In this document: in pieces, positions 27,931-42,337 of the stretch
Layout of the letters: each line of letters starts with the position of its first letter
Position numbering within the stretch: the stretch's first letter is position 1
Assembly (NCBI GenBank): GCA_964016885.1
Contig: OZ024748.1
Span: forward strand, 23,870,001-23,934,000
Direction: 5' to 3'
Origin: Eledone cirrhosa
Taxonomy: Eukaryota
Length of the DNA: 64,000 nt
Notes under the pieces: generated by a model
Databases searched by the model: none
What the model was told of the DNA's origin: nothing
The model's input: the letters and a program-made list of their open reading frames with translations, nothing else
Position numbers and translations under genes: made by a program

Positions 27931-28012
<82 letters not shown>

Positions 28013-28056
28013 AAGTTAAATAAAAGTCAAATGATTAAAATTTAGCTTCGTTTATT

Positions 28057-28111
28057 ACTGCTATATATATTTCAGTGACAGCCATCTTTGGCTATGACCT
28101 CTTCAGGCAGT
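28057..28111 (-). ncRNA. Type I hammerhead ribozyme in PLE 3' pLTR (family A)
   Basis: Minus strand: actgc-CTGAAGA-ggtcatagcca aaga tggctgtcact-GAAA-tatata-TA-gcagt-AATAAA. Confidence 0.85.
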
Positions 28112-29309
28112 TTGAATTAGTATGGTATAGACAAGTACATATATTGTTTAGGTGTATAATATTGTCAATACTCTGATATGCCCAGTTCCTTGTTGGGTTG
28201 TTAATTCACTGAGGAACTGGAGTCATATGAATTCAAACAAACGAATTTTAGTGTCAAAGGTCCCCTTCTCCTCTCATTGGTCAGTTATTAGAACATTCCT
28301 CATTCTAAGTGTTGTTATTGTTGGAGTTAGCTTAAAAATTGATAAAATAGTAGAAGGGACAAGGTGTTAAAGGAACAAAATAACAGAAAAAGTGTCAAAC
28401 TTCCCATTGGTCAGTTCTGAAAGCATTCCTCAGTCAGAAGTCTATAGAATTCTTTCTGGGGTGAGGCTCCCTGTAGTGTTTTTGCCTGCTATTGTTCAGT
28501 ACATTTGACCTCCACCATTATTTTGGTACTGTTGTTGGTGTAGTGGTCAGCTTATATCTTGCTGCTGCTAACAATTTAGAAGTATCCAGTTTGTGTTTTC
28601 TTTTCCCTTCATCCCTCCCCCCACCATCGTAGTGGTGTGGGGGGGGGGGGGTGTTCTTCCATGTATATGAAGAAATATAAGGCAATAAATGAAGAGAACA
28701 GAAAATAAATAAATAATATAATAAAATAATTAATATAATTTGTGTAATTTGAAAATAAATAAATAAATAGAGAATAAAGGATAAATGAGAGATTGGTGAA
28801 AAAGTAATGAAAATGAATATGGAGAAGTGAGAAATAATGTAGGATAAAGTGTGTGTGTGTGCTATAACCAATCTCAAGGTCAGAATATGTTGGATAGATT
28901 GGTATGAGACAAGATGTTAAGATGAGATATTCAAACTCAATGTGTTTGTGTTATAATCTATCTCAACTTAAAATAAATATAAGGTGATACAGTGAAGAGG
29001 GCAGAAAACAAATAACAAATTAATAAAGAGAAATCAAGATTTAAGATTGGAACTTGAAAGTCAGAAATCTGGTAAATTAAAAGTGTTTGTGTTATAGATG
29101 TTGGCCAAATTATTATGGCTGTGTCCGATTCTATCTCTATGCTATCATGGTGTCTGCTCCGCCTGGGTTGTTCCCTGTGGCTTGAGGGGAGTTCACAACC
29201 TAGGGTGTTTTTATTGCCCATATAGCTTGAGGGAGGTCTGGCCGAGAGGTGTTTTCATGTTCTGTAGAAGTCCCTATAGCTTGAGGGGAGTTCACATCTT
29301 CTTGTGTTG

Positions 29310-30874
29310 CTACTGTCCATATATCTTGAGAAAGGTCCCGGCTCTAAGGTGTCTGCATGTCCCGAAGAAGTCGGTTCTGAGGTTTATCAGGCCGCTTCCA
29401 CCTCTTAGTATCTCGAGGGTCTCGTTCAGGCATAGTTTGCATATGCAAGATCCCCCTTTATCGGGTGGTACTTTCCTGATTATGTACCAGGCCAGAGAGT
29501 ATGGGGTCCTGTCCAGCTTAAGCTTCCAGATCAGGTCGGAGAGAGCTGTGCTTTTCCTTTTGGCCTCCTTCTTGAATGAATGGCGATGGTTGTACCAGCG
29601 GTCCTTAAAGTTCCTTGATGTGGCTCCTATGTAGAGGTGTTCGGAGTTGGGGGGTTTTAACCCTACAACCGTACACTAGGTTCTTCTTGAGACATTCATT
29701 ACCAAGGGGGCATGATTCGGGGTTTCTGCAGTTGCAGAGGGTGGTCGGCCTCTGCATGCCTAGATTAGGGTTTTCATTATGTGTTACATGTTGGTCCTCC
29801 CCCATGCTCGGTGGGGGGTCCTTGGGTCTGTTTGTGTTTCTTGGGTGGGCTCTGGGTCCCCCCTTCCCTCCTTTCACATGGTTCTGCTGAGTGTTTGTAT
29901 TGCCATCTTCTGGTTGTGTGTGGTTTTTAAGCCTACTTCTGTTGATGCTAGCTATGTGTTGGGCCAAATTTCTCGTGGTGGAATACGAAAGCTTCACAGT
30001 GTGTCTGTTGAAGATCCTGTGGTATCTGTGGTCCCTCGGGAAGCATTTGTCAAGTGCTCCAAAGAATAATCGGGCCAAGCTTTTCTTTAGGGCCGCTGAG
30101 TAGGGTGGGTTGTACCACGTGATTTGTCGGTGTCTCCTCTTATATGTGTGGGTCGGGGGCTTCGTGATTTGTTGGAGATTTGTTGGGTTGCTGGTGTTTC
30201 CGCACTGTTGCTTCCCTTTTAGGCTCTATACTTTTTGTTATCTTCGCGGCCCGGATTTGTGGGGTGGTTGTTGTCCGCCCCGGGAGATCCATCGTGGGGT
30301 GGTCGCCCGTTCCCCCCCCCCACGTGTCCTGCGGTTGGGGTCGTCCGTCCTGGGGTAGTTAACGTCACGCCTGAGACTGCTACTCATATTGTGCTCCATC
30401 TCGTGGTCAAGCGCACTAGTCAACACCGCCCGTGTGGTGGTGTCTGGTACATGGTGCCTATTTGATTCTACTCTGCCTGTATTGTTAGGGTTCGCCCTCC
30501 CCCCTCTGGCAACGCGGTTGTGGGTGTCTGTTGGGCTATCCACCTCCCGGCTTTTCGGACTATATGTTATATTTTGTCCATGTGCCGCCTTCTTTAGAGC
30601 TGCGTTGTAATATTCCGCGTGGTTGTTGAATATTTCCTTACTTGCGGACAGGCTGGAGATCCTGTCCGAGACACTCTTCACCACTGCCTTGGTTATGGAT
30701 CTAGGGTGGTTTGATTTGGCGTTAACATATACGAGTTTCTCGTTTGGCTTGTGGTAGGGGTAGTATTGCTCGGTGTTCAGGTTTAGAGTGGTGTCTAGGA
30801 AGTTAACTACCTTCCTATTTGGGTCTATTTCTATGCTGAGCCCCTGGTTCTTAAAGAAATGGCGAATACGCCTT
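29310..30874 (-). pseudogene. Disrupted PLE RT-thumb/GIY-YIG ORF
   Basis: +1 frameshift in the G6 run at 29649-29654; two in-frame stops in the linker at ~30226-30240. Confidence 0.85.
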
Positions 30875-30999
30875 TATTTTACACTACTCCGGAGTAACCA
30901 AACCAACCTGCGCACTTCGTCGAGTGCTCCAGCCTGCATACTGAGGTGTTGGTATACAACCAACATAAACTCAAAATCTATATATATATATATATATAT

Positions 31000-31304
<305 letters not shown>

Positions 31305-31458: not shown

Positions 31459-34230
31459 CAAAGCTAGCCACACTAATAGTACATACACACATACATACAC
31501 ACATAGAGACACAAAGCTAGCCACACTAATACTACATACACACATACATACACACATAGAGACATAAAGCTAGCCACACTAATAGTACATACACACATAC
31601 ATACACACATAGAGACACAGAGCTAGCCACACTAATAGTACATACACACATACATACACACATAGAGACACAAAGCTAGCCACACTAATAGTACATACAC
31701 ACATACATACACACATAGAGACACAAAGCTAGCCAGACTAATATTACATACACACATACACACATAGAGACACAAAGCTAGCCACACTAATACTACATAC
31801 ACACATACATACACACATAGAGACACAGAGCTAGCCACACTAATACTACATACACACATACACACATAGAGACACAAAGCTAGCCACACTAATAGTACAT
31901 ACACACATACATACACACATAGAGACACAAAGCTAGCCACACTAATAGTACATACACACATACATACACACATAGAGACACAAAACTAGCCACACTAATA
32001 GTACATACACACATACATACACACATAGAGACACAAAGCTAGCCAGACTAATATTACATACACACATACACACATAGAGACACAAAGCTAGCCACACTAA
32101 TACTACATACACACATACATACACACATAGAGACACAGAGCTAGCCACACTAATACTACATACACACATACACACATAGAGACACAAAGCTAGCCACACT
32201 AATAGTACATACACACATACATACACACATAGAGACACAAAACTAGCCACACTAATACTACATACACAAATACATACACACATAGAGACACAGAGCTAGC
32301 CACACTAATAGTACATACACACATACATACACACATAGAGACACAAAGCTAGCCACACTAATAGTACATACACACATACAAACACACATAGAGACACAAA
32401 GATAACCACACTTATACTACATACACACATACATACACACATAGAGACACAAAGCTAGCCACACTAATAGTACATACACACATACATACACACATAGAGA
32501 CACAAAGCTAGCCACACTAATACTACATACACACATACATACACACATAGAGACACAGAGCTAGCCACACTAATACTACATACACAAATACATACACACA
32601 TAGAGACACAAAGCTAGCCACACTAATACTACATACACACATACATACACACATAGAGACACAAAGCTAGCCACACTAATACTACATACACAAATACATA
32701 CACACATAGAGACACAAAGCTAGCCACACTAATACTACATACACACATACATACACACATAGAGACACAAAGCTAGCTACACTAATAGTACATACATACA
32801 TACATACACACATAGAGACACAAAGCTAGCCACACTAATAGTACATACACACATACATACACACATAGAGACACAAAGCTAGCCACACTAATACTACATA
32901 CACACATAGAGACACAAAGCTAGCCACACTAATAGTACATACACACATACATACACACATAGAGACACAAAGCTAGCCACACTAATAGTACATACACACA
33001 TACATACACACATAGAGACACAGAGCTAGCCACCCTAATACTACATACACACATACACACATAGAGATACAAAGATAACCACACTTATACTACATACACA
33101 CATACATACACACATAGAGACACAAAGCTAGCCACATTAATAGTACATACACACATACATACACACATAGAGACACAAAGCTAGCCACACTAATAGTACA
33201 TACACACATACATACACACATAGAGACACAAAGCTAGCCACACTAATAGTACATACACACATACATACACACATAGAGACACAGAGCTAGCCACACTAAT
33301 AGTACATACACACATACATACACACATAGAGACACAAAGCTAGCCACACTAATACTACATACACACATACATACACACATAGAGACACAAAGCTAGCCAC
33401 ACGAATAGTACATACACATATACATACACACATAGAGACACAGAGCTAGCCACACTAATAGTACATACACACATACATACACACATAGAGACACAAAGCT
33501 AGCCACACTAATACTACATACACACATACATACACACATAGAGACACAAAGCTAGCCACACTAATCCTACATACACACATACATACACACATAGAGAAAC
33601 AGAGCTATCCACACTAATAGTACATACACACATACATACACACATAGAGACACAAAGCTAGCCACACTAATACTACATACACACATACATACACACATAC
33701 AGACACAAAGCTAGCCACACTAATACTACATACACACATACATACACACATAGAGACACAAAGCTAGCCACACTAATACTACATACACACATACATACAC
33801 ACATAGAGACACAAAGCTAGCCACACTAATACTACATACACACATACATACACACATAGAGACACAGAGCTAGCCACACTTATAGTACATACACACATAC
33901 ATACACACATAGAGACACAAAGCTAGCCACACTAATAGTACATACACACATACATACACAGATAGAGACACAAAGCTAGCCACACTAATAGTACATACAC
34001 ACATACATACACACATAGAGACACAAAGATAACCACACTTATACTACATACACACATACATACACACATAGAGACACAAAGATAACCACACTTATACTAC
34101 ATACACACACTGGTACACACATAGAGACACAAAGATAACCACACTTATACTACATACACACATACATACACACATAGAGACACAAAGATAACCACACTTA
34201 TACTACATACACACATAGAGACACACACAA
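31459..34230. repeat. 53-bp minisatellite (~52 units, with 49-bp variants)
   Basis: agagacacaaagctagccacactaata(g/c)tacatacacacatacatacacacat repeated; a 310-bp block is duplicated (31632 vs 31942). Confidence 0.95.
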
Positions 34231-34936
34231 GAGTACACTCTACAATACAAACCTAGTGTTTCTCCAAACAGAACGTAATCTAGTGGATCATGTACAAACA
34301 CAGACAAATTACACGGCATACTCTCCCGTATTAACATATTAGTATTGATTCCGTACTTTACTGTTATTTTTTACTGGGATTCCATATCTAATGGTGCTGC
34401 TTGCTTCAACATTTACATGTTGATAGAGGAATTATATTTTGTTAAATAATGTGTAAACCCCCCCCCCCCCTCACACACACACACACACCTCAGCGCCCTG
34501 TGTGTAGGTGAATAGTTAGACTGGGGTGGAAGAGAGGTGGTGATGTGACATATCAAATTCAATGTTATATTGAAGACAGCTTTATTGAAGAAACACTCAC
34601 ATGTGATTTTCGAAGAATGAACATGTTGATCCCAGGAATGATTTGAGTTTCGTATGTTGGTCAATTGAACCTTCATCAGTTATCGATTAAGACCACGACT
34701 TTGGATACACAATTGAATTTTATATGTTCAATGGCTACATATAGAGCACACATGTAGGATACTGTATGACACATGTAGAATTCTTATCGTATGTGGCTTC
34801 GTTGGAGATGTCAGCTGACCAGGCTTTATGAAACACATATTTGTTATGAGCTGCCTAAATATATGATCCCGGAAGAAACTGACTGGATCATAGCATCAGC
34901 CCAGACATCCACACAACATTGACTAACAGACTATTG

Positions 34937-35555
34937 ACTGTTGAGGACCAGAGGTGTCTTTTTACTGCTCAGTTAAGGTGACACTAACAGACTGTTGAGG
35001 GTCAGAGGTGTGTTTTTACTGCTCGGGTAAGGTGACACTAACTAAACAGACTGTTGAAGACAAGAGGTGTGTTTTTACTGCTCAGCTAAGGTTGTGTTGC
35101 CTAACAGACTGTTGAGGGCCAGAGGTGTGTTTTTACTGCTCGGGTAAGGTGACACTAACAGACTGTTGGGGGTCAGAGGTGTGTTTTTACTGCTCGGGTA
35201 AGGTGACACTAACTAAACAGACTGTTGAAGACAAGAGGTGTGTTTTTACTGCTCAGCTAAGGTGACACTGACTTTTGAGGACAAGAGGTGTGTTTTTACT
35301 GCTCAGCTAAGGTGACACTGACTAAAGACTGTTGAGGACAAGAGGTGTGTTTTTACTGCTCAACTAAGGTGACAATGAATAAACTGACTGTTGCGGGCCA
35401 GAGGTGTGTTTTCACTGCTCAGGTAAGGCGACACTAACTAAACAGAGTGGTGAGGATCAGAGGTGTGTTTTCACTGCTCGGGTAAGGTGACACTAACTAA
35501 ACTGACTGTAGAGGACCAGAGGTGTATTTTCACTGCTCAGGTAAGGCGACATTGA
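34937..35555. repeat. 54-59-bp minisatellite (~11 units)
   Basis: actgttgagg..agaggtgtgtttt(t/c)actgctc..taaggtgacactaac(taaac)ag. Confidence 0.9.
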
Positions 35556-41720: not shown

Positions 41721-41961
41721 AAATAACGATAGTCTTGCAACATTTCTTTTAATAGACCTACCATTTTCCTTATATCCGACGAGGAATGCTGCAGAGGTAT
41801 CTGTATCAAATGATGACACATGCACCAAGGTACCCATGTCTAGGGAGTATAACTCTTGCATAAAATAAATCAGCGACTCGCAATGTGTTGGCGGTACCAA
41901 TACACAAACCAATATTTGAATTGTTCGATTACGAGGTGAAATGCAGGCGATACATTTCCAT

Positions 41962-42160
41962 ATTAATAATTGTTTCTACTTTTGGCACAAGGCCAGCAAT
42001 TATTCCAGTGTATTACTGGTACTTTATTTTATCGACCCCCGTAAGGATGAAAGGCAAAGTTAACCTCGGCAGGATTTGAACTCAGGTTATAAAGGGCCGT
42101 AACTGTTTGCTGCAAAGCATGGCGTCCGACCCTCTACCGATACTGCCAATCTACCGTCCT
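41962..42160 (-). mobile_element. SINE S1 copy
   Basis: Reverse complement of 1938-2148. Confidence 0.85.
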
Positions 42161-42337
42161 TTTTCCATATTAGTAATGATAATTGCCTGACTCTACCTAA
42201 AACGAAAACGAGGAGACCTATGTGCCATATAAGGTATAACCATAGAACTGAGAAGACTGTTGGACCCTCATACGCCGAAATACGACGGGAGAGTCCATCA
42301 TATATAGATATGGCGGTGATGTATGCATATTTATAAT

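Follow-up and report, generated by a model that had tools for sequence, protein, structure and literature searches.

An inverted Penelope-like tail at the 5' truncation point of a probable Hydra-clade element in Eledone cirrhosa is consistent with priming from both target ends

Results

Organisation of the locus

The DNA analysed here (the window) is a 64,000-nt stretch of the Eledone cirrhosa assembly GCA_964016885.1 (contig OZ024748.1, positions 23,870,001 to 23,934,000); all positions below are numbered from its first letter. It is microsatellite-rich, animal-like DNA with 40,481 nt of non-microsatellite sequence. Two pieces lie head to head between a left and a right (TA)n run (Table 1). 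Their inner join is without TA, and direct reading of the sequence places an element 3' end against (TA)n on both outer sides. As a first-pass annotation had it, a Penelope-like element (PLE) on the minus strand (28008 to about 30873) ends tail-less, in tttatttt followed by atata and then (TA)n to 28007, and a plus-strand piece (30873-30978, 106 nt) starts with the terminal tttattt of family A, reads GAGTGCT at 30922-30928 and passes into (TA)n. The letters A-K used for families are labels of this analysis, except for "family A", which was taken over. The geometry of twin priming is thus present, with two inverted fragments head to head, each having its 3' end at the target. Because the (TA)n flanks on both sides mask any target-site duplication, the single insertion event is one that we infer.

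Table 1 Features of the two-armed insertion and its flanks (positions within the window)
Feature	Position	Strand	Basis
Left (TA)n target microsatellite	27931..28007	none	sequence reading
Family A 3' pLTR; tail-less end at 28008 (putative RT start site 1)	28008..28172	-	
Minimal hammerhead ribozyme motif: CUGAAGA core, stem II, GAAA, stem I	28057..28111	-	descriptor match and fold
Remainder of the long 3' UTR, with short internal duplications	28173..29309	-	
GIY-YIG endonuclease frame; YIG 29625-29633, CxxC 29430-29441, CxH 29349-29357	29310..29675	-	
RT thumb and linker frame, CxCx5C at 29710-29736; frameshifted relative to the EN frame	29605..30225	-	
RT C-terminal part: motif 7, thumb, low-complexity insert; 5'-truncated at 30873-30876	30238..30873	-	
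9-nt overlap with the family A pLTR end; first 0-3 nt possible RT-arm microhomology	30873..30881	+	
Conserved bulged stem-loop: ACUC/GAGU base stem, 6-bp upper stem, UC bulge, then GCU	30886..30928	+	
Tail 3' hairpin, just before the tail end at 30978 (putative RT start site 2)	30942..30973	+	
Right (TA)n target microsatellite	30979..31000	none	sequence reading

By its sequence, the long arm (28008-30873, minus strand) is a 5'-truncated PLE. The end of its reverse transcriptase (RT) and its endonuclease (EN) are collinear and both match P0002, a full RT-EN protein (RT part: 38% identity over 99 aa, E=5e-20), with one stop and one frameshift interrupting the coding part. The EN frame scored E=1.9e-4 and 22.1 bits against Pfam PF01541, just below the cut-off of 22.6, and had 524 representatives with E<=1e-10; Pfam recognised no other frame of the element, and a word-indexed protein search using the RT piece gave no match. 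Overall, the RT followed by a C-terminal GIY-YIG EN characteristic of EN+ PLEs was found, though in a broken ORF, as was the pLTR (in three copies) together with an inverted copy, here of the tail, at the 5' break. The features surviving truncation match the Hydra clade as described by Craig et al. (2021, PMC8557442): the C-terminal GIY-YIG EN, a CxCx5C linker before it, CxxC and CxH at its C-terminus, a pLTR hammerhead near the 3' end (by descriptor and fold) and a preference for (TA)n targets. In a check for the CCHH arrangement, no cysteine pair was seen within the GIY-YIG core, a stretch in which a frameshift falls. With truncation upstream of RT motif 7, the copy has lost the N-terminal RWK, DKT and divergent RT4 region. 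An Rfam search over 8000-32000 returned no hammerhead and nothing on the piece, only sub-threshold microRNA-type hairpins. Low-complexity inserts in the ORF (30238-30560 and 29740-29910, about 100 and 55 aa) were absent from the four homologues displayed.

The 3' UTR is about 1.3 kb long, and its last 165 nt are common to the copies at 31001 and 9514, which make up family A (86-93% identity; 139/161 and 126/146 positions, respectively, against 28008-28172). None of the three family A copies within the window (28008, 31001, 9514) carries a tail. At the inner end, the RT frame stays open as far as 30873, with TAA following at 30874-30876, which places the join within 30873-30876. Up to three T's shared at the join may be RT-derived microhomology, and since the TAA codon corresponds to K or R in all four alignable homologues, some microhomology is likely.

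Elsewhere in the window, remnant non-LTR reverse transcriptase frames lie at 19344-20147 and 25040-26322; from their motifs, we take them to be RTE-like. Satellites occupy 31459-34227 (53-bp units), 34936-35551 (about 59-bp units) and 48263-58967 (30-bp units, more than 10 kb), and a dispersed SINE-like repeat of about 200 bp occurs at 1937-2137, 3868-4058, 24538-24688, 41960-42172 and 61391-61600.

A conserved stem-loop identifies the plus-strand piece as a tail

Structure, position and length support the identification of 30873-30978 (plus strand) as a PLE tail. The "shared hairpin" previously claimed for it is present, in a form that we refined to a bulged stem-loop whose base stem is 4 bp and upper stem 6 bp, with a 2-nt bulge on the 3' side; constraining the fold to this structure costs 0.1 kcal/mol (-22.0 compared to -22.1 kcal/mol for the minimum free energy fold). 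The corresponding motif, RCUC-stem-loop-stem-UN-GAGY and usually then RCU, was found in 11 other tails of the window. In these other short PLE insertions, the tail is recognised as the part of one arm that extends beyond the (TA)n stop of its partner, and it opens with the stem-loop. From stem-loop start to tail end the piece measures 93 nt, while 10 of the 11 other tails measure 62-94 nt and one 154 nt. Hairpins resembling the one at 30942-30973 were seen in most other tails of the window.

The string TACT[CA]..GAGT[GA]CT occurred 8 times in the non-microsatellite sequence (200 shuffles: mean 0.89, maximum 4), and 14 of 67 (TA)n boundaries had its covarying form at most 110 nt upstream, two of these being double counts and one being without assignment, compared to 1 of 332 background windows. 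Across the 12 tails (piece included), upper stems summed to 40 bp at a 2-nt bulge and to 2, 2, 4 and 11 bp at bulges of 0, 1, 3 and 4 nt; in 5,000 shuffles the mean was 6.4 and the highest value 21. The base stem covaried, as ACTC/GAGT in nine tails and GCTC/GAGC in three, and no mixed form was present at the 67 boundaries. The upper stem of the piece (6 bp) is the longest of the 12 and was equalled in 7 of 20,000 shuffles. The descriptor was drawn from these same tails, partly from the piece itself, and the published consensi therefore serve as the independent check. By eye, three of six published Hydra consensi carry the stem-loop: in Hydra-2_Amil and Hydra-2_Ajap it lies at the 3' end, in Hydra-1_Ajap right at the 5' start; Hydra-1_Crog has a variant, and it was not recognised by eye in Hydra-1_Amil or Hydra-1_Obim.

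At the nucleotide level, the piece had no homologue elsewhere in the window, with no local alignment above shuffles. A held-out, sequence-only profile of nine other tails scored it at only E=1.9; this profile was without the base pairs because MAFFT left the RCTC column unaligned. Three short motifs of the piece were not found in the supplement of Craig et al. (octopus Naiad and Hydra consensi), in which line breaks could mask a match. Two further descriptor matches, at 14664 and 45363, were set aside as chance hits, having neither the RCT ending nor PLE context. A second orphan tail at 10741-10866 was likewise unsupported (48 of 1,000 shuffles scored equally); this segment is the partner arm of a tailed B-like arm (10867-11011) and shows weak tail likeness.

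Other two-armed insertions in the window

By eye, 16 two-armed insertions flanked by (TA)n were classified in the window, 11 of which combine a tailed and a tail-less arm and one a tailed arm with a partner of unknown kind; two are tail-less on both arms, and in another two an arm starts from an internal site that is non-standard. The count excludes the single-armed fragment 12931-13201, so that 16 of the 17 PLE-like fragments listed are two-armed. No locus has two tails (0/16, P=0.02-0.05), which hints at coupling of both fragments to one RNA. At the 10 tail plus tail-less loci other than the present one, the arms are of the same family.

The first-pass annotation proposed that twin priming would unify all palindromes of the window, and this generalisation survived in part. 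Two same-family palindromes cannot be products of simple fold-back. At 21827-22102, the centre holds a sense hammerhead core continuous with the tail-less arm. At 12534-12727, it is a natural sense-strand stem of the tail-less arm, with G-U pairs (-19.6 compared to -9.8 kcal/mol), and sister copies also place it on that arm. In both, the centre belongs to the tail-less arm, and hence the longer arm is without the tail that its partner has. The insertion at 9462-9700 also excludes simple fold-back, as a family E arm (minus strand) lies directly head to head with a family A arm (plus strand), both tail-less. Its 9462-9513 segment belongs to E and not to A (0/300 shuffles scored as well against E copies, 256/300 and 176/300 against A). 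With arms of two families, this locus needs two RNAs in one event, that is, dual rather than twin priming. At 8525-9065, the centre lies on the tailed arm and is compatible with either model.

The part of the generalisation that did not hold concerns palindromes that fit fold-back. Among the 13 palindromes measured, six have near-perfect hairpin centres with loops of 1-7 nt, which fit either fold-back or a pair of cDNAs, whether linked at a natural hairpin or both run off one and the same RNA end. The best fold-back candidate, which fits that process well, is 31001-31192, where a family A pLTR lacking a tail bears an inverted arm of 25 nt and a 4-nt loop that ends at an internal site about 140 nt upstream. 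Its inner end lies within about 10 nt of that of the copy at 9514.

Further details were noted at individual loci. The centres at 12654-12688, about 21105-21125, about 21390-21405 and about 9190-9200 lie just upstream of a GAAAC/TGAAC hammerhead segment, i.e. at stem II. This suggests that natural hairpins supply the joining microhomology at palindrome centres, the stem II position being shown for 12654-12688 only. At 9668-9702, the family A end is stuttered: a 10-15-nt unit is present about 2.5 times, as though priming had restarted several times at one start site. A family C palindrome (9701-10690) is broken at its TA-containing centre by a family B palindrome (9834-10241), an instance of nested targeting. 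Arm mismatches amount to 9/191 at 11866-12340 and 7/57 at 12611-12731; those at 11866-12340 lie, by eye, near the outer ends, a clustering that could reflect two template pLTRs.

Family of the inverted tail

The piece starts with tttatttta, a 9-nt match to the family A end with the first target base included, and diverges from that end 4 nt before the ACTC at 30886. Compared with 14 tail-less ends, this match was the best: the two family A ends gave 9 nt and the other 12 ends 0-4 nt. One of 139 cross-family pairs reached 9 nt. Among 14 same-family pair tests, 8 showed a match of 7-11 nt; the misses were family H, for which the script used a second run of TA, and pairs from family E with arms of differing ends. 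Tail-less ends part from their tailed same-family partners 2-6 nt before RCTC, so that the family A overlap (9 nt, offset 4) falls in the usual register, in a window picked post hoc once the data had been seen. A composition null produced such a match in 784 of 100,000 trials (0.8%), or 1,665 of 100,000 (1.7%) if the TTT is RT-derived. Because no tailed family A copy lies in the window, the family identity rests on these 9 low-complexity nt, on the basis of which the tail is probably family A's own. Its source may have been the same RNA's 3' end (twin priming as defined for L1), the 5' pLTR-tail junction of an RNA in partial tandem, or a further family A RNA.

Alternatively, both target ends could have been primed on two unrelated RNAs, the tail being that of another Hydra family and the 9-nt match accidental. 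The two-family insertion at 9462-9700 shows that such events occur, sequence upstream of tails is T/A-rich (116 of 143 nt), and one cross-family pair matched over 10 nt. We nevertheless regard this as unlikely, given a chance match of about 1-2%, agreement over at most 4 nt between the piece and any non-A end tested, and the same-family arms at the 10 comparable loci.

Discussion

The 2.87-kb arm is without a tail and the tail arm is without RT sequence, so a sense RNA would need two cDNAs to yield both. We consider two cDNAs primed from both target ends and joined head to head to be the best explanation of the locus, with a probability of roughly two in three. In the proposed sequence of events, the RT-endonuclease would cut both strands of a (TA)n run, as suggested by the flanks and by in vitro data on a related PLE. 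The left 3'-OH would then prime at the pLTR end, 4 nt 5' of the stem-loop, and about 2.87 kb would be copied into the RT gene. The right 3'-OH would prime where the tail ends, 93 nt 3' of the start of the stem-loop; about 105 nt would be copied, this cDNA ending at most 9 nt past start site 1. In the observed head-to-head join, the 3' ends of the two cDNAs would finally have been linked over 0-3 nt of A/T microhomology and then filled in. The stem-loop is proposed as a protein-recognition element that would set start site 1, and palindromes would be products of the same event when the pLTR is covered by both cDNAs.

The initial annotation had argued that such asymmetry cannot come from simple fold-back of a cDNA, and we agree, as the 2.87-kb arm holds no tail to fold back on. 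It also had the short cDNA copy only the tail; that a stop at the pLTR/tail boundary is special was not supported: the sequence kept upstream of the stem-loop is 10-13 nt in the piece and 46-242 nt in the other 11 tailed arms, and under uniform truncation the chance that at least one of 12 arms would be this short is 0.41-0.55. That the tail arm was stopped by collision with the second cDNA is attractive but unproven.

A more elaborate fold-back route is that a tailed cDNA folded back into a long palindrome, from which nearly all of the plus-strand arm was later lost by a one-sided deletion. Palindromes can undergo central deletion, and a later one-sided deletion at the centre could mimic all the same-family asymmetries described above; the near-perfect centres at 6 of the 13 measured palindromes also accord with fold-back. 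At the present locus, however, this route would need a 2.9-kb fold-back and a 2.86-kb deletion that spared the other arm and stopped 9 nt from the arm end, and it cannot yield the two-family insertion at 9462-9700, which makes it improbable to about the same degree as priming on unrelated RNAs. An inversion already present in the template, through read-through or antisense transcription of a palindromic copy or through antisense self-priming as proposed for rotifer Penelopes, is a slimmer possibility again. Arkhipova et al. (2013, PMC3846280) derive head-to-head palindromes from antisense-template self-priming; this would only shift the origin of the join one step back, and the family B copies at 9834 and 21827 have different centres, which indicates that joins are made anew at each insertion. 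Least probable is the independent landing of a short 5'-truncated tailed copy in (TA)n at the element's 5' end, as the inner join is without TA, whereas neighbours sharing a run keep TA (22 nt at 30979-31000), and nearly all listed PLE-like fragments are two-armed, even though (TA)n runs are hit repeatedly (the family A copy at 31001 is in the same run, and the family B copy at 9834 in the centre of a C copy).

One-ended tails and inverted 5' copies are standard in PLEs (PMC8557442, PMC3846280). In the Hydra clade in particular, inverted 5' copies occur and the tail is often at one end only, the tail being attributed to EN-mediated resolution (PMC8557442). Here, the inverted arm is the tail alone, the 3' UTR is about 1.3 kb long and the tails measure 62-154 nt from the stem-loop, compared to 30-40 bp in that description. 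The words "stem-loop", "hairpin" and "bulge" are absent from its main text. In Adineta vaga, Penelopes similarly show head-to-head inverted pLTRs, a tail on one arm and palindromes at the joins, and these were explained by self-priming (PMC3846280); the orphan tail and the two-family chimera reported here are not simple self-priming products.

Biochemical support for two starts comes from the Poseidon PAc protein (Frangieh et al. 2024, PMC11167929), which in vitro cut and extended both target strands. Two internal RT starts bracket the tail, with starts at a stem-loop, and a dimer model was put forward. Poseidon belongs to another clade than Hydra, and its stem-loop is AC-rich. The accessible text of that paper does not tie the two starts to inverted insertions or twin priming, "inverted" and "twin" occurring once each in unrelated senses. 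The closest mechanistic parallel is found in L1 copies whose 5' end bears an inverted poly(A) tail, for which Meyer et al. (2010, PMC2837659) propose twin priming (one RNA) and dual priming (two RNAs). The geometry is the same: a truncated copy has, inverted at its 5' break, the 3'-most stretch of the RNA. In L1, this variant is in the minority and its internal site varies, being set by annealing, whereas here it is seemingly the rule, with a fixed site adjoining a structured RNA motif. In addition, the unique tail and the two-family chimera permit a distinction between one and two RNAs that was impossible for those authors. In the PLE literature searched, a scope outside which most subscription papers fell, we found no description of the stem-loop or of a two-ended priming model for PLEs, and a search joining Penelope with twin priming returned, by title and abstract, nothing on PLE mechanism.

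How the inverted and tailed insertions of PLEs arise is an open question according to Craig et al. (PMC8557442). The window contributes genomic products that separate the models, namely an orphan tail, palindromes whose longer arm is tail-less and a two-family chimera. As a tentative generalisation, to which we give rather less than even odds, Hydra-clade PLEs would insert routinely from two ends. A dimeric RT-endonuclease would use two fixed starts flanking a clade-wide stem-loop, and the cDNAs would be joined at natural RNA hairpins, in many cases hammerhead stem II, with RNAs of different families sometimes as their templates. If true, routine two-ended insertion would account for tail, inverted pLTRs and palindromes through a single mechanism and would define a cis RNA signal. 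The covarying stem-loop is a concrete and mutable candidate for an RNA signal that positions reverse transcription, and it provides a marker for short non-coding Hydra fragments, which are dense in the window. The locus adds no new class of element; its relevance lies in retroelement mechanism and in the annotation of microsatellite-rich animal genomes.
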